A DNA stretch of 18,148 bases from a virus (taxonomy: Duplodnaviria; Heunggongvirae; Uroviricota; Caudoviricetes). The translations under genes and the position numbers were made by a program. Under the pieces are notes generated by a model that did not search any database, was not told the DNA's origin, and saw nothing but the letters and a program-made list of their open reading frames with translations. The stretch lies in the IMG/VR virus record IMGVR_UViG_2703718826_000002, one strand, 5' to 3'. This document shows, one piece after another, positions 1,559-15,892 of the stretch. Numbering within the stretch: position 1 is the stretch's first letter; each line of letters starts with the position of its first letter.

Positions 1559-2455
1559 CTAGGCAAACAGCGCATTTTGTTTAAGTCCAACGACCTTTGC
1601 AAAATTCCCAATCAGGATCCCTTTAGCTACTGATACCCGGTCGGCAAAATCGACTTTAGAAGCGGCAGCCACCAGCTGCTGATTTAGCTGGTGGGCTTTC
1701 TGTTCCAGAAGTTGCTTTTGTTCAGCTAACTCGGCAGCCAGGCGCAGAGCTTCTGGAAGCGTCTGGGGGATTGCGACCGGTTGCTGTTCTTTTTGTCGGA
1801 AGTAGCTGTCTTCCAGTTTTTCAAAGAATGCCCATGCCTGATCGGTTTCGAGCATTTTAGCGTGACGGGCAGCTCCTCGTTCTGTCCAGAGGATGAGAGA
1901 GCGCGCTTTGGGGGAGACTGGATTTTGTGAGTAGTTTAAAGCTACCCGCAAATTTTTCAGCTCATCGCCAATAACCTTGAAAAAGTGCTTCGCTTCAACA
2001 AAGCGTACTTTGTTCTCATGATGATTCTGGCGAATGCGAATCGCTTCTGTACCATACCCCTTAGCAAGAGTTTCGGTTGTTACGACACGCACTCCCTGCC
2101 ACTCCAGAACGGGAATTTCATCCGACTGATTTTGAACAACCACCAGCTCTGATTCCTGAACTGAAGGTGCATGAACTTTTTCTGATTTAACGTTAGTAGC
2201 TTTCATTCTGTGTGCCTCCTTGCGTGCTTCGGCTGCGACGGTTGCGTAATTCAGATGCCCCTGTTCGAGCAGGTATTCGCGGATATCAGACAGCAGGATG
2301 CGGTGAACTGCGTTCTTGTCCTTTCTCCGGTAAAGTTGTTTGGTGATCATGAAGTAGTTGGCAATAACGCCCGGTATATCCCTAGTACTGATACAGGCAG
2401 TGTGCTGTTCAATTGCCTCGATCATCTCTTCACGGGTAACTAATGACGTTCTCAT
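1559..2455 (-). CDS. phage antirepressor-family protein (Ant-like; Bro-N/ORF6N-like central region and KilA-C-like C-terminus)
   Basis: 298-aa ORF. Central motif VVTTETLAKGYG...VRFVEAKHFFKV and C-terminal VSVAKGILIGNFAKVVGL resemble antirepressor domains. Start overlaps upstream ORF stop (ATGA). Confidence 0.6.
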   Translation of the reverse strand: MRTSLVTREEMIEAIEQHTACISTRDIPGVIANYFMITKQLYRRKDKNAVHRILLSDIREYLLEQGHLNYATVAAEARKEAHRMKATNVKSEKVHAPSVQESELVVVQNQSDEIPVLEWQGVRVVTTETLAKGYGTEAIRIRQNHHENKVRFVEAKHFFKVIGDELKNLRVALNYSQNPVSPKARSLILWTERGAARHAKMLETDQAWAFFEKLEDSYFRQKEQQPVAIPQTLPEALRLAAELAEQKQLLEQKAHQLNQQLVAAASKVDFADRVSVAKGILIGNFAKVVGLKQNALFA

Positions 2456-2673
2456 AGTCCCTCCTGAGCAGAAGCGTTAACAGGGAGGCACCAGTAACTG
2501 AGAGAATTGCGCAAATCGGTTGAAAAGCGGGCAGAGAAAATGCAGGGAGCGTCAGGAAGCTGAGAATGGGCCTCATCTTCTGTCGGTGCAATAACGAAGT
2601 GATAGTGACGTTTTTGGCAGGAGTAAAAGCGCCAGATAAATTCAGGATGAATTGGGGTAGGGACAGTAGCCAT
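2452..2673 (-). CDS. small protein (73 aa) translationally coupled to the antirepressor; icd-like position
   Basis: Strong RBS AAAGGAGG 8 nt upstream of ATG; ATGA overlap with the Ant-like gene, as in P1 immI icd-ant coupling. Confidence 0.5.
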   Translation of the reverse strand: MATVPTPIHPEFIWRFYSCQKRHYHFVIAPTEDEAHSQLPDAPCIFSARFSTDLRNSLSYWCLPVNASAQEGL

Positions 2674-2858
2674 AATGGCAGCCTCCTTTGACTAAGTTAA
2701 GGAGCTACCGCGTGAGGTCTCAATCTCAATGGCGGTAGCACTGACTGGGTTGAGACTACCGGCGTCAAAGGGAACCGGCCTGCCTTTCGGCAGCCCAGCC
2801 AGCACTACCATTGATTTCGGAGCTAAACGCTACGTATGGCTGTGCGATGGCATGACAC

Positions 2859-2881
2859 AAAAAAAGACGCTTTCGGCGTCT
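2859..2881 (-). terminator. intrinsic terminator (minus strand): stem GACGC/GCGTC, loop CGAAA, followed by U7
   Basis: GC stem-loop immediately followed by seven U in minus-strand sense; sits between the operator-controlled promoter at about 2990-3015 and the icd-like gene. Confidence 0.55.
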
Positions 2882-2980
2882 GTGTCGCCTTTGACATTAT
2901 CCGGGGTCTCAATCCCGGCACCCGTTTTAATGAGGTGCCTGATAAGCATAAACCGAAAATGCCTCAAGGCGCAAGAGGTC
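2882..2980 (-). ncRNA. candidate short structured transcript or leader (c4-like antisense-RNA position)
   Basis: About 100-115 nt between the predicted promoter (-10 TACATT at 2987-2992) and the terminator; contains stem-loops (CCGGG...CCCGG). No convincing protein-coding frame. Confidence 0.2.
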
Positions 2981-2986
2981 AGGTTC

Positions 2987-3029
2987 AATGTAACATCGGC
3001 AGTCAAAAAACACAATTTATTAGAGCAAG
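2987..3029 (-). promoter_or_regulatory. C1-type operator (3013-3029, CTTGCTCTAATAAATTG on minus strand, 15/17) overlapping the -35 (TTGTGT) of a promoter with -10 TACATT
   Basis: 17-mer begins 2 nt after the terminase stop codon; 17-nt spacer between hexamers. Confidence 0.5.
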
Positions 3030-3032
3030 TGT

Positions 3033-4160
3033 TTATTCATTAAGCCATGCCAGAGCTTCATCAACCTGCGCTTCGTCTTCGACGCTAAGCACTTCGTCCT
3101 GGGGAACATAATCCGCCAGCATAGCGAAACAATATGTATCCCAATGGTCTGGTGAGTGCAGGTTGAGTTTTTTCTTCATATCCTCCTTACTCATCACCTT
3201 CCATTGACCTGCGGAGTTAATCCCTACAGGGATTTTCGACGCTTCCTCAATAGTTTCATTACCCTTATCCAGTCTCATACGACCAGATTTTACGGCCTCT
3301 GCGGCTTGAACGTTGGCATAAGCACGTTTATCAAAGTACAGGCTCTTATCTTCACGGCTATGCATCTTTTTACCCCAGCGTATACGCTGTACGGTAATAC
3401 CATAATACTCGTACATCAGATCCGCCGTTGCTTTACCCAGGCCATCGCCGTCTATCGCTATGGTGATATTGGGGAATCGCTCAGGATTACATTCTGCGAA
3501 AATTTTGGCGGCAAGCTGCGTTTCTGTAACGTCTGTGTATTCCAGCATTCGATAGTTGATTACACGGCGTTTATTTCGCTGGCCGGACACCATCATGATA
3601 TTGATAAAGGACTTATCCCGTCCTGTACCACCAGCAACGTCCACACATGCAAGCCAGCCCCATCCTTTGGCAATCTTGACTTTCCGCCGCGTCGCACGTT
3701 CAACCTCATCACGTCCAAGAAGGAAGCCGTCCTGTAATTTAGGGAATAGGCCGCGTACCTTAATCATGTACATAGGGTTATCACGCCCGCCGTACTCCGC
3801 CAGCTTCATTTTGATAAATTCTGACGTTACCAGCGGTGATTCCTCACTGTTAAGCGTGATCGCCGTATAAACGCCATCTGGGTTACCAGGACGCTTGGCC
3901 AGTTTATGGTGAGTATCGTAGAAATAGCCGCTTGGGCGTGTAGGCTGTGACAGTAATAAGATGCGGTTATCCTGTCCGGTAAGAGCACCGGTGATGATAC
4001 CGAAAGCTCTATCACTGACACCGGAGGCTTCATCGATAATATACAGAAGATGATCTGCGTGTTCACCGGCGAGAACTTCTTCACTTCCCAGACGAAAGCC
4101 CTTCGGTACTACAGTCCATACACCTTTACCAGTAGACTGGCCCCCTGAATCTCCAGACAA
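3033..4160 (-). CDS. terminase large subunit, C-terminal portion (Walker B plus nuclease domain); gene interrupted upstream
   Basis: 375-aa ORF starting at a TTG; contains Walker B-like [11 protein letters not shown] and acidic nuclease-domain motifs. In-frame stop 3 codons upstream of the putative start. Confidence 0.75.
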
Positions 4161-4165
4161 CCAGT

Positions 4166-4183
4166 ATCACTTATTTAAGTGAT
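4166..4183. repeat. 18-bp perfect palindrome ATCACTTATTTAAGTGAT at the break between the two terminase ORFs
   Basis: Revcomp of ATCACTTA is TAAGTGAT; provides stop codons in all three minus-strand frames. Confidence 0.8.
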
Positions 4184-4605
4184 AACAGGTGTCTGGAAAT
4201 ATAGGGGCAAATCCAACCAGTAACCTCATAGAAAGCGGTTTCTGTCAGAACAAAATAATCAGCAAGCCATGGAAAACGGCTGGTGGCAGTAGCCCAGTTT
4301 ATCTTGATGTACTTGAATATACCGGTCATTACCTGCTGAATTTTGTTCGCAACGATAATGGCGCGGGCACCGGGATACATGATTATGAACAACATGATCA
4401 TGATAGAAGTCATGTCTGATTTCCCGGTACCGTGACCAGACGAAACAGATGTCTTGCTACCCTGTTCCTGCACAGACTCAATAATCAGATCCTGCTGCCA
4501 GGTAGGTGTTTTGCCGAACAAAACATCAGCGGCCGCAATCCAGTCATAACGATATAGCGCCACCAGCTCGCGCCAACGTGGATCCGTTACGCAACTTCTG
4601 GCCAT
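4171..4605 (-). CDS. terminase large subunit, N-terminal portion (Walker A SGHGTGKS)
   Basis: 144-aa ORF with P-loop; ends in TAA inside the palindrome. Start overlaps the stop of the upstream acidic protein (TAATG). Confidence 0.7.
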
Positions 4606-4976
4606 TAATCATCATCCCCGTATAGCTTGCGGGTAACTTCTTCGTCTTCCTCCTCGTCTTCGTCCAGGTCTTGTTCCAGCCATGGGTCGTTTGATACACC
4701 TTCAGTATCAACATCTCCATAACCGCCTGTATCAACGATATCGGCGATTTCTTCCCTACGCTGCTCAATCCACAATGCGGCATCGGCGCGGCGGTTGGCG
4801 GCCCGTTCTCGCGCAACTTTGTCCAGATCTTCAAGAGAAGGGCCACCGACGGCTGTTTGCCTTTCCTCATCATCGGTATTGGTCTTAGGAGCACGCAGAT
4901 CGGCTTTGATTTGCTCCAGCATCAGGGGCGGCACTTTCCCGCCATGCGCCTCGATGAATTCAGCTGCTTCCAGCAC
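4605..4976 (-). CDS. acidic packaging-associated protein, probably C-terminal part of a terminase small subunit
   Basis: 123-aa ORF with poly-acidic C-terminus (DEDEEEDEE); translationally coupled to the large terminase. Frame is open upstream to 5009, overlapping the 104-aa ORF. Confidence 0.45.
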
Positions 4977-5236
4977 TGACCAGTTATTTTCACGCTTTCG
5001 TTCGTACTGTCATCAATCAAAACAGACGAATACTTAGACACAGCGATAGCTTTTAAGCGCAGATAAACATCGCGCTTATCGACATCCAGATGCGGGTATT
5101 CCTTTTCAAGAATTGCTGCGAGTTCTTTCGCTGATAGAAGAGATTTAGTGCGGATCATGTAATTCGCAATCTCGTACGATGTTATTCGTGAGTGATTTAT
5201 TTCCATGAAGTGGCGTCCCTGCCAGTTAAGTAACAT
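4922..5236 (-). CDS. putative N-terminal (DNA-binding) part of the small terminase-like protein; C-terminal tail likely out of frame
   Basis: 104-aa ORF; alternative start at 5206 (MEINH...). Last 18 residues ([18 protein letters not shown]) are the alternate-frame reading of the 123-aa ORF N-terminus. Confidence 0.4.
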
Positions 5237-7357: not shown

Positions 7358-8916
7358 ATGAAAATGACAAGTATTCAACAACGTGCAGAGCTTCATCGTC
7401 AAATCTGGCAAATTGCTAACGATGTCAGAGGTTCGGTCGATGGATGGGATTTTAAGCAATACGTTCTGGGCGCGCTTTTCTACCGTTTTATCAGCGAAAA
7501 TTTTTCCAGCTATATTGAAGCCGGTGATGACAGCATCTGTTATGCGAAACTGGATGACAGCGTAATTACTGATGACATTAAAGACGATGCCATCAAAACC
7601 AAAGGCTACTTCATCTACCCAAGTCAGCTTTTCTGCAACGTAGCTGCGAAAGCAAATACCAATGACAGACTGAACGCAGATTTAAACAGCATCTTCGTTG
7701 CTATCGAAAGTTCTGCTTACGGCTACCCTTCAGAAGCAGACATCAAAGGTTTGTTTGCTGATTTCGATACCACCAGTAACCGCCTGGGTAACACCGTTAA
7801 AGATAAAAATGCCCGCCTGGCTGCGGTTCTGAAAGGGGTTGAAGGGTTAAAACTTGGTGACTTCAACGAACATCAGATTGACCTGTTCGGTGATGCCTAT
7901 GAGTTCCTGATTTCTAACTATGCGGCAAATGCCGGTAAGTCAGGCGGTGAGTTCTTTACACCGCAGCACGTCTCCAAGCTGATTGCACAACTGGCTATGC
8001 ACGGGCAGACCAACGTTAACAAAATCTACGACCCGGCAGCGGGTTCCGGCTCACTGTTGTTGCAGGCTAAAAAGCAGTTTGATAACCATATCATCGAAGA
8101 AGGCTTTTTTGGTCAGGAAATCAACCATACAACCTATAACCTGGCACGTATGAACATGTTTTTGCACAACATCAACTACGACAAGTTTGATATCAAGCTG
8201 GGTAATACACTGACTGAGCCACACTTCAGAGATGAAAAACCGTTTGATGCCATCGTTTCTAACCCGCCGTATTCGGTGAAATGGATTGGCAGCGATGACC
8301 CGACGCTGATTAACGATGAACGTTTTGCCCCGGCTGGCGTTCTGGCCCCCAAATCCAAAGCTGACTTCGCCTTTGTACTACATGCGCTGAACTATCTTTC
8401 TGCCAAAGGTCGTGCTGCGATTGTTTGCTTCCCGGGTATTTTTTACCGTGGCGGCGCGGAGCAGAAAATCCGTCAGTATCTGGTTGATAATAACTATGTC
8501 GAAACCGTGATTTCACTGGCACCGAATCTGTTCTTTGGCACCACTATTGCCGTCAATATTCTGGTGCTGTCTAAACATAAAACGGATACCAAAGTTCAGT
8601 TTATTGATGCCAGCGAATTGTTCAAAAAAGAGACTAACAACAATATCCTGACCGATGCCCATATCGAACAGATTATGCAGGTATTTGCCGGCAAGGAAGA
8701 TGTTGCCCATCTGGCGAAATCTGTTGCGTTTGAGACTGTTGTCGCGAATGACTATAACCTGTCGGTGAGCAGTTATGTTGAAGCGAAAGATACTCGCGAA
8801 ATTATCGATATCGGTGAGCTGAATGCTGAGCTGAAAACCACGGTCAGCAAAATCGACCAGTTGCGCAAAGATATTGATGCGATTGTGGCTGAAATTGAAG
8901 GCTGCGAGGTGCAGAA

Positions 8917-8920
<4 letters not shown>
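7358..8920 (+). CDS. hsdM: Type I restriction-modification system, methyltransferase subunit HsdM (Type IC, EcoR124-family)
   Basis: 520 aa; AdoMet motif [10 protein letters not shown] and N6-adenine motif NPPY (AIVSNPPYS); N-terminus matches recalled EcoR124I HsdM. Stop overlaps hsdS start (ATGA). Confidence 0.95.
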
Positions 8921-10152
<1,232 letters not shown>

Positions 10153-10159
10153 TTGAGCA

Positions 10160-10273
10160 TTTTTACAGACCGGACCACCTTAACATCCGGTCAGTATATA
10201 GACTATTTTCTACACGCCGGAAGTCGCCCTTAACTCCCTTCCGGCCCTTGCCAGACGGCACAAAGGATGCGCT
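10160..10273 (+). promoter_or_regulatory. hsdS-hsdR intergenic region with two inverted repeats (GACCGGA...TCCGGTC; GCCGGAAG...CTTCCGGC); candidate hsdR promoter/regulatory region
   Basis: 121-bp gap, consistent with Type IC organisation in which hsdR has its own promoter; no strong sigma70 hexamers identified. Confidence 0.3.
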
Positions 10274-13200
10274 ATGACTCATCAAACACACACCATTGCT
10301 GAATCCAATAACTTTATCGTCCTTGATAAGTACATCAAAGCTGAGCAAACAGGCGACAGCTACCAGAGCGAATCGGACCTGGAACGTGAACTGATTCAGG
10401 ACCTGCGGAATCAGGGCTATGAATTTATATCCGTAAAATCACAGTCGGCGATGCTAGCCAATGTTCGGGAACAGCTTCAGAACCTCAATGGTGTGGTGTT
10501 TAATGACAGCGAGTGGCGGCGTTTCACGGAGCAGTATCTGGATAACCCGAGCGATGGCATTCTGGATAAGACCCGTAAAATCCATATCGACTATATTTGC
10601 GACTTTATTTTTGATGACGAGCGTCTTGAGAACATCTATTTGATAGATAAAAAGAATCTCATGCGCAATAAGGTGCAGATTATCCAGCAGTTTGAACAGA
10701 CGGGTTCTCATGCTAACCGTTATGACGTCACGATCCTGGTTAATGGTTTACCGCTGGTGCAAATCGAACTAAAAAAACGCGGGGTGGCGATTCGTGAGGC
10801 TTTCAACCAGATACATCGTTACAGTAAAGAGAGTTTTAACAGCGAAAATTCCCTGTTTAAGTATCTGCAGCTGTTCGTCATTTCCAACGGCACTGATACC
10901 CGTTATTTTGCCAACACCACAAAGCGCGATAAAAACAGTTTTGACTTCACCATGAACTGGGCTAAATCAGACAATACACTGATTAAAGACCTCAAAGACT
11001 TTACCGCTACCTTTTTCCAGAAACATACTCTGCTTAATGTTCTGGTGAACTACAGCGTTTTTGACAGCAGTCAGACACTACTGGTAATGCGACCGTACCA
11101 GATTGCCGCCACCGAGCGCATTCTGTGGAAAATTAAGAGTTCCTTTACAGCGAAGAACTGGTCAAAACCGGAAAGCGGTGGGTATATCTGGCACACTACC
11201 GGTTCTGGTAAAACCCTCACCAGCTTTAAAGCCGCGCGTCTGGCAACAGAGCTGGACTTTATTGATAAAGTCTTCTTTGTGGTCGACAGGAAAGACCTCG
11301 ATTACCAGACCATGAAGGAATATCAGCGTTTTTCGCCAGACAGCGTCAACGGCTCGGAAAATACCGCAGGTCTTAAACGAAATCTGGATAAGGACGATAA
11401 CAAAATTATCGTCACTACTATTCAGAAACTCAATAACCTGATGAAAGCAGAAAGCGATCTGCCTGTATATAATCAGCAAGTGGTGTTTATATTTGATGAA
11501 TGCCACCGCAGCCAGTTTGGAGAAGCGCAGAAAAACCTGAAGAAGAAATTCAAACGCTATTATCAGTTTGGTTTTACCGGCACCCCTATTTTCCCGGAAA
11601 ACGCCTTAGGCTCAGAAACAACCGCCAGCGTATTTGGTCGTGAATTGCATTCGTATGTAATTACCGATGCGATTCGTGACGAAAAAGTGCTCAAATTCAA
11701 GGTGGACTACAACGATGTGCGGCCACAGTTTAAGTCTTTAGAGACAGAAACTGACGAGAAAAAACTGAGTGCGGCTGAAAATCAGCAGGCGTTTCTTCAT
11801 CCCATGCGTATTCAGGAAATCACGCAATATATTCTGAATAATTTCCGCCAGAAAACCCACCGTACCTTCCCTGGCTCAAAAGGTTTTAATGCTATGTTGG
11901 CAGTGAGCAGCGTGGATGCCGCGAAAGCCTATTATGCGACGTTTAAACGGTTACAAGAAGAAGCCGCTAATAAATCGGCTACCTATAAACCGCTGCGTAT
12001 TGCGACAATCTTCTCCTTTGCCGCCAATGAAGAACAAAATGCCATTGGTGAAATTTCCGATGAAACTTTTGATACCAGCGCAATGGACAGCAGTGCTAAA
12101 GAGTTTCTGGACGCTGCAATTCGTGAATATAACAGCCATTTTAAAACTAACTTTAGCACCGACAGTAACGGTTTTCAGAACTACTATCGTGATTTAGCCC
12201 AGCGGGTTAAAAATCAGGATATCGATCTGCTAATTGTCGTGGGGATGTTTTTAACCGGCTTCGATGCTCCAACATTAAACACGCTATTCGTCGATAAAAA
12301 CTTGCGTTTTCACGGCCTGATGCAGGCATTCTCCCGCACCAACCGCATTTATGACGCGACTAAAACCTTCGGTAATATTGTCACGTTCCGGGATCTGGAA
12401 CGCTCAACCATTGATGCCATAACGCTGTTTGGTGACAAAAATACCAAAAATGTGGTTTTAGAAAAGAGTTATGCAGAGTATATGGAAGGCTTTACTGATG
12501 CTGCCACTGGTGAAGCTAAACGCGGCTTCATGACAGTAGTTTCAGAACTGGAACAACGGTTCCCTGACCCTACCAGTATTGAAAGTGAAAAAGAGAAGAA
12601 AGACTTCGTTAAACTGTTTGGCGAATACCTGCGTGCCGAGAACATCCTGCAAAACTATGATGAATTTGCCACGCTAAAAGCCCTGCAACAAATCGATCTT
12701 AGCGATCCTGTTGCGGTAGAAAAATTCAAAGCAGAACATTATGTGGATAATGAAAAGTTCGCTGAATTGCAAACAATTCGTCTCCCTGCTGATCGCAAGA
12801 TTCAGGATTATCGTTCTGCCTATAACGATATTCGCGACTGGCAGCGCCGTGAGAAAGAAGCTGAGAAAAAAGAGAAATCAACCACTGACTGGGATGACGT
12901 AGTTTTTGAGGTCGATTTGCTGAAGTCTCAGGAAATAAACCTGGATTATATCCTTGGACTGATTTTCGAACACAATAGACAAAATAAAGGCAAGGGCGAA
13001 ATGATCGAAGAGGTCAAACGCTTAATTCGTTCAAGCCTGGGGAACCGGGCGAAAGAGGGCCTGGTGGTCGATTTTATTCAGCAAACGAACCTGGATGATT
13101 TACCAGACAAAGCCAGTATCATTGAGGCATTCTTTACGTTTGCTCAACGCGAACAGCAACGTGAAGCAGAAGCATTGATAAAAGAAGAAAATCTCAATGA

Positions 13201-13390
13201 AGATGCAGCAAAACGCTATATTCGCACGTCTTTAAAACGCGAATACGCCACCGAAAATGGCACAGAATTAAACGAAACATTACCAAAACTTAGTCCGTTG
13301 AATCCGCAATATAAAACGAAAAAACAGGCAGTTTTCCAGAAAATCGTCTCGTTTATTGAGAAGTTTAAAGGCGTAGGCGGAAAAATATAG
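10274..13390 (+). CDS. hsdR: Type I R-M restriction subunit HsdR (Type IC; PD-(D/E)xK nuclease plus SF2 helicase motor)
   Basis: 1038 aa; nuclease motif VQIELKK, Walker A TGSGKT, DEAH-like FDECHRS; size matches recalled EcoR124I HsdR. Confidence 0.95.
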
Positions 13391-13638: not shown

Positions 13639-13655
13639 AGATTTATTAGAGCAAT
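13639..13655 (-). promoter_or_regulatory. C1-type operator (ATTGCTCTAATAAATCT on minus strand, 16/17 to consensus)
   Basis: Best consensus match in the window; immediately follows the TAA stop of the HAD gene; promoter-like TTGATT-N17-GAAAAT downstream. Confidence 0.55.
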
Positions 13656-14161: not shown

Positions 14162-14180
14162 ATGCCCTCCTCATTGGACG

Positions 14181-14213
14181 AAAAAAATGCTGGTGGGAGC
14201 ACTCCACCAGCAT
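14181..14213 (-). terminator. rho-independent terminator (minus strand): 10-bp stem ATGCTGGTGG/CCACCAGCAT, 7-nt loop, then U6-7
   Basis: Perfect stem followed by a U-run in minus-strand sense, between the truncated orfA-like ORF and the HAD gene. Confidence 0.6.
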
Positions 14214-14233
14214 TAAAAGTGACACTGTAACTA

Positions 14234-14460
14234 TCAGCGAACGTAAATAGTGCCGCCGTTCTCTTTTTCCCATGCATCGCTACGTGCATAGCAAACATCG
14301 AGAAGTCTTCTTGCCGCAGTTTCCTCTACCCCAGCTTCGGCTTCGCGGAGAATACTGATGATCTGTTCGTCGGAAAAACGCTTCTTCATGGGGATGTCCT
14401 CATGTGGCTTATGAAGACATTACTAACATCGGGGTGTACTAATCAACGGGGAGCAGGTCA
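14234..14460 (-). mobile_element. IS3-family (IS407-like) left-end remnant: terminal repeat-like TGACCTGCTCCCC plus truncated orfA (51 codons)
   Basis: Minus strand from 14460 begins TGACCTGC...; ORF 14234-14389 starts MKKRFSDEQIISILREAEAG (typical IS3 OrfA N-terminus) with GAGGA SD, diverges, and stops after a conserved GG. Confidence 0.4.
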
Positions 14461-14889
14461 AACCATCGCGGTCATTTCATTGAGTTTTGTTTCCAGCTCA
14501 ATGCTTATACGTTCGGCATTATCAGCACGCTGGTTGGCGTCATGCGTCGCATCGTCGATCGCGTCCTGTTGCTGGCGTTTCAAATGTTCAATTTGCAGCT
14601 GAAGCTCTTCAATTTCTTTACCCTTCAGACCGAGATCCAACTGCATATTTTCAGCTGCATCTACCAGGGAGTTATGGCTATCAGCTTCTGCGTTATAAAC
14701 ATCAATAAGCTGTGCGTGAAGCATCTCCGCTGACTGAACCGCATTATCAAAAAAACGTGCTGTGAGGTCATCACAACTAACGCGGCGTTGCGCGGCCCGG
14801 ATGTTCTGGATAATGGCCGGGATACCGGCATTCAGGACATCAGGGATAGATACATTTTCGATTGATTGGTTTTGTGCTGAAGTGCTCAT
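14458..14889 (-). CDS. hypothetical coiled-coil protein (143 aa)
   Basis: Intact ORF with heptad-rich, Gln/Glu-rich C-terminal half; abuts the 72-aa ORF. Confidence 0.45.
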   Translation of the reverse strand: MSTSAQNQSIENVSIPDVLNAGIPAIIQNIRAAQRRVSCDDLTARFFDNAVQSAEMLHAQLIDVYNAEADSHNSLVDAAENMQLDLGLKGKEIEELQLQIEHLKRQQQDAIDDATHDANQRADNAERISIELETKLNEMTAMV

Positions 14890-14890
14890 T

Positions 14891-15109
14891 TCAAAGTTCC
14901 GTATTAGCTTGTGCTTCGGTCATTTTTCCTAAGTATGAAGGTGGAAGGACTACGCAATTTGTATCCAGTCCCTCACCTATGGCAGCCTGTAAAATTCTGG
15001 CTAAGGTGAGTCTCTTGTTGCGATACCTGGTGATGACATGCCTGATACCGCCGGTCGGCGTAACAAAGGCGATCAGCCAGTAGTGATATTTCCGTCGGAA
15101 TGGCCACAT
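14891..15109 (-). CDS. hypothetical small protein (72 aa)
   Basis: ORF with AAGGTG SD; first gene downstream of the dual-operator/terminator element. Confidence 0.4.
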   Translation of the reverse strand: MWPFRRKYHYWLIAFVTPTGGIRHVITRYRNKRLTLARILQAAIGEGLDTNCVVLPPSYLGKMTEAQANTEL

Positions 15110-15123
15110 AGTGCACCTTATAG

Positions 15124-15189
15124 ATTGCTCTAATAAAAAACGTGATGAGTGTACATCACGTTTTAAAAATATGGAATTATTAGAGCAAT
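15124..15189. promoter_or_regulatory. dual inverted C1-type operators (15124-15140 plus strand; 15173-15189 minus strand) flanking a perfect hairpin terminator (15140-15161)
   Basis: ATTGCTCTAATAAAAAA and revcomp ATTGCTCTAATAATTCC (each 14/17); central stem ACGTGATG/CATCACGT with A/T tracts on both sides. Confidence 0.55.
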
Positions 15190-15190
15190 A

Positions 15191-15892
15191 TTATTCTGAT
15201 TCTCGCTCAAAAAATGAGCTGATAAGGGGAAGCCAATCCTCTGACACTTCGCGAGGTCGCGGTTTGCCGTGGAAAAAGATTATTCGGCAGTCTTTTGGTA
15301 ATGCCCCATTCCCCCTGGAGTAACGCGCGCTCGCATATTTCGAACCAGGTTCCACAACATCGGCCTTGTAACTTACAAACCATCCCGGATACAGATCCTG
15401 AAATGCTGGTGTATCATCACCCATAACCTTCCGCAAAAACCCCTGCTCACCCCAGCATTCAGTAGTAACACAACGAGCAATCCAACCTTCCGGATCTTGC
15501 CAGAATGCACTCCAGATATGCGCTTTTACACTATTTGGTATCCACAGGGCACCGCTGCCACGATATTGTGGATGGTAAAAATCCCTAAGCATGGTGAAGC
15601 TGGTTGGTGGATTCTCTAGGATTGGGCGTATATCACCGGCAATAACCGTGTCCAAATCCAGATAGAACAGATCATCGGTTATATCCGGTCGGAACAACTC
15701 GATTTTCGCCCACCAGCCACGGCACTTTTGCCACTGGTTGATCAATGGGACAACTTTGACGCCAGGTACATGTAAACGCTTCAGGTCTGTCAGGCAAATA
15801 ATTTCATAGCCTTTTGGCAGTTGATTAACCAGCCACTGCACATCGGAAGCGTTATAGTCACCACCAGAGCGAAGAACTAAAGCAATCTTCAT
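15191..15892 (-). CDS. GT-A fold glycosyltransferase, family-8-like (DxD motif YLDLDTV; HxxGxxKP-like FFHGKPRP)
   Basis: 233 aa; N-terminal beta-strand KIALVL, DxD and C-terminal His/Lys motif resemble retaining GT8 enzymes (LgtC/RfaJ type). ATGA overlap with the upstream phosphatase gene. Confidence 0.5.

Follow-up and report, generated by a model that had tools for sequence, protein, structure and literature searches.

A predicted one-way terminator and a putative pmgR promoter between the paired C1 operators Op86a and Op86b of a P1-like plasmid prophage

The window analyzed here, the whole 18,148-nt stretch of the viral record IMGVR_UViG_2703718826_000002, belongs, judged by its sequence, to a P1-like prophage of the plasmid type. 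The region was 97–98% identical to phages P1, P7, RCS47, SJ46 and other Punavirus genomes. The 301 bases surrounding the element studied here (15124–15189) recurred in 687 plasmid records, nearly all of them at least 95% identical, and a surrounding stretch of 131 nt differed from P1 at a single base, located outside the element. On the minus strand, the gene order is pmgO, pmgP, ppp and pmgQ, followed by the element, pmgR, a damaged pmgS, pap and the operator Op88. A first-pass annotation of this DNA had placed the element between a GT8-like gene and a unit of small genes, and the flanking minus-strand genes pmgQ and pmgR agree with this placement. The neighboring features are as follows:

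15191–15892, minus strand: pmgQ (hdmD in P7), the end gene of the upstream pmgN–pmgQ unit, whose transcripts reach the hairpin
14891–15109, minus strand: pmgR (shtA in P7), the first gene of the controlled unit, with a Shine-Dalgarno sequence AAGGTG at 15114–15119
13639–13655, minus strand: operator OpmgT (formerly Op88), the next downstream, lying directly after an upstream stop codon (that of pap), much as Op86a follows the stop codon of pmgQ

PmgQ is named a glycosyltransferase in RefSeq records, and the pmgR homologue shtA is annotated as a tail-sheath gene in the P7 record. No Pfam family was found for PmgR, nor, at E ≤ 0.01, for C1 (457–1308) or PmgQ (15191–15892). A passage of PMC10695390 cites deletion analysis according to which pmgR is essential in P1. 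A scan of genome contigs with PmgR as the query returned two E. coli loci only, and phage D6, which lacks both pmgQ and pmgR, was without value for comparison.

Comparison with its relatives indicates that the prophage is degraded and rearranged. The pmgS gene (region 14162–14890) is interrupted: its match to P1 is lost between 14328 and 14453, and 732 bp of the gene are replaced by about 124 bp (14329–14452) that look like one terminus of an IS3-family element. Located at 14234–14389, an ORF of 51 aa, with the start MKKRFSDEQIISILREAEAG, gave a weak match to HTH_Tnp_1, and several unrelated phage records share a 134-bp stretch at the break with 100% identity. At about 4135–5006, some 1.1 kb of the RCS47 sequence is missing, which removes pacA in its 5' portion and lpa (late-promoter activator) in its 3' portion, and pacB carries about 81 extra bp relative to RCS47. 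Late transcription and packaging are probably defective in this prophage. Between phd/doc and Op88, the variable region holds a complete type I restriction-modification system (7358–13390, plus strand), in which hsdM, hsdS and hsdR encode 520, 411 and 1038 aa, respectively, and the hsdR product has an EcoR124_C domain; the P1 GenBank record mentions homology between this junction and the DNA that follows the hsd loci of EcoDXXI and R124/3 on their downstream side.

The element had been described as a quasi-palindrome of about 66 bp, and this is real at 15124–15189, but it is imperfect, a 12-nt bulge (15165–15176) on one side only making it lopsided. Its outer arms, ATTGCTCTAATAA (15124–15136) and TTATTAGAGCAAT (15177–15189), are 13 nt long, 100% complementary and separated by 40 nt, so the inverted copies of an operator motif reported at 15124–15140 and 15173–15189 are present, with perfect 13-nt inverted arms. 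The inner hairpin has arms of 11 nt (15137–15147 and 15154–15164), also 100% complementary, and a loop of 6 nt. The 8-bp hairpin with A/U tracts on both sides was likewise recovered, the stem ACGTGATG/CATCACGT being the G+C-containing portion of a full stem of 11 bp; on the plus strand, A6 (15135–15140) lies ahead of this stem, and T4 followed by A5 (15161–15169) comes after it. The inner hairpin by itself was predicted to fold at −13.4 kcal/mol (z = −5.2), and the 76-nt region at −26.9 kcal/mol (z = −9.7).

The two 17-mers and the cognate repressor gene were located as follows:

15124–15140, plus strand: C1 operator OpmgRb (formerly Op86b), ATTGCTCTAATAAAAAA, identical to protein_bind 82201–82217 of AF234172
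15173–15189, minus strand: C1 operator OpmgRa (formerly Op86a), ATTGCTCTAATAATTCC, identical to protein_bind 82152–82168 of AF234172
457–1308, plus strand: c1, the cognate repressor gene, 281 of 283 residues identical to P1 C1.100, with c1 of RCS47 annotated at the same place

Both 17-mers coincide exactly with annotated C1 operators of P1 and P7, which supports the earlier proposal that they are repressor-binding sites, and the element is almost certainly the Op86a/Op86b (OpmgRa/OpmgRb) pair of P1. In AF234172 (P1), both are described as "monovalent" C1-controlled operators, and OpmgRa is said to control "expression of pmgR and pmgS"; in AF503408 (P7), the corresponding sites are Op(sht[a]) and Op(sht[b]), which are assigned to the control of the sht (sheath) operon. 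These P1 and P7 sites are identical to the window element in sequence, position, orientation and flanking genes. The operator pair is already known, having been listed in the genome records of P1 and P7 for some two decades; since these records annotate both sites and c1 lies in the window, the operator part of the observation is a rediscovery. A full-text search of the literature gave no match for Op86 or for C1 looping.

Each 17-mer matched the C1 consensus ATTGCTCTAATAAATTT at 14 of 17 positions, with the first 13 nt perfect and the three mismatches all at the 3' end. Six matches to the 17-mer consensus at this level were found in the window (0.07 expected), and allowing up to one mismatch in the 11-nt core also gave six (0.45 expected), four of which were exact. 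The asymmetric C1 consensus, the presence of 22 operators in P1 and the ternary complex with Lxc are described in PMC8546580. Op86a begins 1 nt past the stop codon of pmgQ, and the 3' A6 of Op86b is the template for the terminator U-tract, which lies on the opposite (gene-sense) strand. Upstream of c1, the window also contains coi and the bivalent operator Oc1ab. We infer that both Op86 sites would be occupied by C1 in the window prophage. Next to c1 lies an immI-like antirepressor module (1559–3029, minus strand), whose layout is common to RCS47 and which is not found at that position in P1:

3013–3029, minus strand: a C1-operator-like site with two mismatches
2860–2938, minus strand: isrK
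2728–2815, minus strand: C4 antisense RNA
1559–2455, minus strand: an ORF6N/ANT antirepressor ORF

The conservation of the element was assessed on 136 further loci, collected by PmgR alignment from viral and metagenome collections, with diverged copies added from Cronobacter phage JK004 and Salmonella plasmids. The element was extracted from 142 copies, 61 of them distinct, and the P1 group comprised 53 haplotypes. In this group, the mean number of minor-allele haplotypes per column was 4.07 in the pmgR leader and 2.27 at the 3' end of pmgQ, as against 0 in the first 11 nt of Op86a, 0.18 in the Op86b core, and 0 in both the U-tract and the hairpin loop; per-column variation in the flanks was 4 to 20 times that of the operator cores. 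The 11-nt core of Op86a was invariant in all 142 copies, and that of Op86b nearly so. The diverged clade from Salmonella and Cronobacter kept both operator cores and an identical spacing (17+12+7+6+7+17), with the stem CATGGTG/CACCATG vs CGTGATG/CATCACG in P1. In the A-tract at 15160–15164, the 53 P1-group haplotypes differed solely by A-to-G changes, which 3 and 6 haplotypes carry (in the 121-column extract, columns 52 and 55); these changes recur on differing flanking backgrounds, suggesting repeated mutation or recombination.

The outer arms and the inner hairpin behaved differently when their pairs were counted over 19 distinct sequences. Nine of the 13 operator-arm pairs never varied, the terminal pair was broken in all four diverged sequences, and this count revealed no compensatory change in the arms. 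The predicted operator arms are therefore conserved as sequence, in the manner of a protein-binding site. By contrast, two of the 11 inner-hairpin pairs were changed on both sides (in the Salmonella/Cronobacter clade, pairs 2 and 5 had switched from G-C to A-U and from A-U to G-C), and six varied on one side only, with pairing kept as G·U or U·G. Of all inner-hairpin cells, 98% were paired, vs 39–52% in slid-partner controls, with 14 G·U cells vs 4 broken ones, so that some natural variants lose a stem pair. The 14 G·U cells pair on the gene-sense RNA only, being A·C on the other strand. This pattern argues for conservation of the inner hairpin as a gene-sense RNA structure, with few independent events behind the covariation; the compensatory changes come from one diverged clade and probably represent one event per pair.

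The same counts bear on the view that the entire 66-nt quasi-palindrome forms one RNA stem of 24 pairs, or a DNA cruciform, serving for instance in RNase III processing or stability, and that its likeness to operators is secondary. The low folding energy given above, which is obtained for either strand, is consistent with such a stem, and RNAalifold, run with no structure supplied, predicted the same inner hairpin and included the outer helix too. Nevertheless, the outer arms lack compensatory changes and have the broken terminal pair noted for the diverged sequences; the arm motif recurs in the window as single, unpaired copies; and should transcripts end at the U-tract, RNA polymerase would never reach the 3' arm. 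We rejected the long stem and the cruciform because no covariation was found in the outer arms, and we regard this explanation as very improbable indeed.

The inner hairpin is better viewed as the following candidate:

15137–15164, minus strand: hairpin AAAACGUGAUG-UACACU-CAUCACGUUUU (gene-sense RNA), a candidate intrinsic terminator for transcription in the pmgQ direction

Past the hairpin, the gene-sense strand continues with UUUUUUAUU, with a U6AUU tail at 15132–15140, and the plus strand with UUUU, then AAAAA. We scored both strands with a d'Aubenton-Carafa-type (1990) formula and a 7–8-bp stem: the gene-sense scores were +5.8 to +10.7 in P1 and +11.6 to +13.6 in the diverged relatives, vs antisense scores of −20.7 to −28.6 and −18.2 to −75.4, respectively, with the strong pmgS–pap terminator reaching +12.6 on the same scale. 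On the antisense strand of JK004, A·C mismatches make the hairpin weaker. The predicted terminator is therefore one-directional, acting in the gene sense only, and the bidirectional terminator put forward in the first-pass annotation was not borne out: the plus-strand tail is T4A5, the scores on that strand are negative, and the G·U variants pair on the sense RNA only. Insulation of two transcription units, which had also been proposed, fits better, as a conserved hairpin with a U-tract lies right after the pmgQ stop codon and would separate them.

The hairpin is modest for a terminator, with 7 core pairs, 4 of which are G-C, and −8.5 kcal/mol. A simple promoter and terminator scan of 15110–15190 reported neither the hairpin nor a promoter; the hairpin was missed because the maximal 11-bp stem takes four U's of the tail. 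No Rfam family was found at the element, and the genome records examined, those of P1 and P7 among them, carry no terminator annotation there. It is fairly likely that the hairpin serves as an intrinsic terminator of transcription coming out of pmgQ, and termination would then be expected at the U-tract itself. The pmgS–pap terminator (14186–14214) is likewise a stem-loop with a U-tract just past a stop codon, and has a similar score. The Op86 hairpin differs from it in its shorter and more A+U-rich stem, and in being interleaved with a putative promoter and two operators, its U-tract doubling as half an operator.

The first-pass annotation overlooked a further component. We infer that a promoter for pmgR–pmgS between the operators would be the main reason for their presence there, and three sequences are relevant to its location:

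15160–15188, minus strand: PpmgR, the "predicted sigma 70 promoter" of GenBank AF234172, with its −35 TTGCTC (15183–15188) inside Op86a and its −10 TAAAAC (15160–15165) in the left hairpin arm
15148–15153, minus strand: candidate −10 TACACT in the hairpin loop, which reads TATCAT in the Salmonella and Cronobacter relatives and is invariant in the 53 P1-group haplotypes
15171–15176, minus strand: candidate −35 TTCCAT, a weak hexamer spaced 17 bp from the loop −10 and overlapping the final 4 nt of Op86a

The top sense-strand candidate in a sigma70 PWM search used the loop as the −10 in all four P1-clade lineages, with scores of 6.4–10.0 bits (TTCCAT-17-TACACT in P1, 6.4 bits; TTTTAA-17-TATCAT in Salmonella, 8.4 bits; TTTACT-16-TATCAT in JK004, 10.0 bits). 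Both this candidate and the annotated promoter are weak (5–6 bits in P1, in AT-rich DNA), and about 0.2–0.3% of window positions score equally. Candidates on the antisense strand, which in this AT-rich DNA had scores equal to those of the sense strand, were discarded as likely noise.

The GenBank model may nevertheless stand, with PpmgR as annotated (TTGCTC/TAAAAC) and a start in the loop, Op86a as the working operator and Op86b as an auxiliary roadblock downstream. It has the annotation in AF234172 in its favor, together with a score of 5.2 bits for TTGCTC-17-TAAAAC in P1 and one Salmonella plasmid, and an operator TTGCTC is also annotated as a −35 elsewhere in P1, for example in P2pmgT at Op88 and in P1coi. 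However, the annotated −10 lacks the conserved final T; JK004 has TGAAGC in its place (score −2.2), Salmonella Newport has TAAAGC, and its critical second base, A, is replaced by G in 3 P1-group haplotypes. These A-to-G changes preserve G·U pairing, which suggests that the constraint at these positions reflects RNA structure rather than a −10 element. The −10 of the predicted PpmgR is thus probably misplaced in the record; TAAAAC seems a rather unlikely −10, and the GenBank model as a whole unlikely as well. The loop is our tentative choice for the −10 of the pmgR promoter, at somewhat less than even confidence. The present reading accordingly differs from the P1 and P7 records in two respects: no terminator is annotated in them, and they have the −10 in the left hairpin arm, a position disfavored by comparison. 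Under either promoter model, the start point would fall within the hairpin; the resulting pmgR transcripts would be without the left arm and hence would not be terminated by the hairpin.

More distant relatives have paired motifs at the corresponding position. The Citrobacter PmgR is 34% identical to that of the window, and the Pantoea PmgR is 45% identical to the Citrobacter protein. The inverted motif pairs upstream of these homologues are:

Locus L006 (from Citrobacter plasmid NZ_CP056338), 1926–1979: inverted pair CCATACTAAT, upstream of the pmgR homologue
Locus L149 (from Pantoea plasmid NZ_CP034366), 1721–1776: inverted pair GATACTAAAAT, upstream of the pmgR homologue

They are probably operators of heteroimmune C1-like repressors, positioned as in P1; in Citrobacter, a third copy of the motif follows the pmgS homologue. 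No terminator hairpin was present at the corresponding site in either relative, and the −10 of the best promoter candidate (TATCAT in Citrobacter and GATATT in Pantoea) again lay between the arms. The core centers are 55 bp apart in the window vs 32–33 bp in these hairpin-less relatives, a gap of about two helical turns that hints at an interplay of bound C1 molecules, which is suggestive but no more.

These relatives also bear on whether there is a promoter between the operators at all. Expression of pmgR–pmgS might instead depend on read-through of a leaky terminator from PpmgN, with the C1 sites serving as roadblocks and making the stop tighter in lysogens. The weakness of both promoter candidates, the merely moderate stability of the hairpin and the location of Op86b directly downstream of the U-tract, a good position for a roadblock, would be consistent with this. 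Nonetheless, the curators of the P1 and P7 GenBank records tie the operators to pmgR/sht expression, and Citrobacter and Pantoea keep the inverted pair and a central −10-like hexamer without the hairpin, so the conserved partner of the operator pair appears to be the promoter-like site. In P1 CRISPRi experiments, dCas12a roadblocks in pmgO, pmgP, ppp and pmgQ were harmless to plating, which speaks weakly against read-through, as a roadblock in pmgR failed likewise; because the knock-down of the essential pmgR itself failed, these data argue neither for nor against a separate pmgR promoter. We therefore consider a promoterless arrangement quite improbable.

Taken together, it seems quite likely that an operon-end terminator, a pmgR–pmgS promoter and two C1 sites are combined in about 66 bp. 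On the minus strand, pmgQ stops and Op86a starts 1 nt further on; 12 nt past Op86a, the RNA hairpin and U6 would stop transcripts from the C1-controlled pmgN–pmgQ operon in one direction. The pmgR promoter would lie within the hairpin DNA, its −10 being the loop (preferred) or the left arm (GenBank), and transcription would begin in the loop or the right arm, yielding a pmgR RNA that, without the left arm, would escape termination. Op86b would overlap the U-tract and cover about +1 to +29 of the promoter, and Op86a would overlap or abut the −35. In a lysogen, one C1 molecule per site, aided by the co-repressor Lxc, might shut the promoter from both flanks, and inactivation of C1 would allow pmgR–pmgS(–pap) to be expressed as a separate early unit. 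A more specific proposal, possible but speculative, is that a nested 28-bp palindrome acts both as the RNA terminator for the upstream operon and, through its loop, as the −10 of the promoter that follows, with the whole unit held shut by two C1 monomers on inverted sites; the hairpin would have been inserted between pre-existing operators with a modest phase shift (~5.2 vs 3.0–3.1 turns), and the bound repressors would interact.

Within the prophage, a close parallel is Oc1ab (formerly Op99a/b), upstream of c1 at about 346–373 of the window, which likewise consists of convergent asymmetric 17-mers with their 3' ends facing and a C1-repressed promoter. In Oc1ab, a 6-bp overlap joins the two sites into a near-palindrome of 28 bp, whereas the Op86 sites are 32 bp apart (49 bp from center to center); bivalent operators are overlapping 17-mers within a near-palindrome of about 28 bp, and Op86a/b do not have this arrangement. 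In the gal (OE/OI) and lac (O1/O3) systems, dimeric or tetrameric repressors bind symmetric sites, with proven looping over 90–115 bp, and these too are paired sites that flank a transcription start and could act jointly. Unlike them, the C1 sites are asymmetric and only about 49–55 bp apart, and an interaction between C1 molecules, including the cooperative binding or looping put forward in the first-pass annotation, is hypothetical.

The discovery value of the element itself is small, as the operators have long been catalogued and the element is nearly unchanged in nearly 700 P1-like plasmids. For work on P1 transcription and the engineering of P1 phagemids, the unannotated one-way terminator and the likely misplaced −10 would be refinements, and the compact terminator–promoter–operator cassette may serve as an insulator part in synthetic biology. 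The pmgR gene, reported as essential in P1, seems to be transcribed from a promoter that lies within this terminator.
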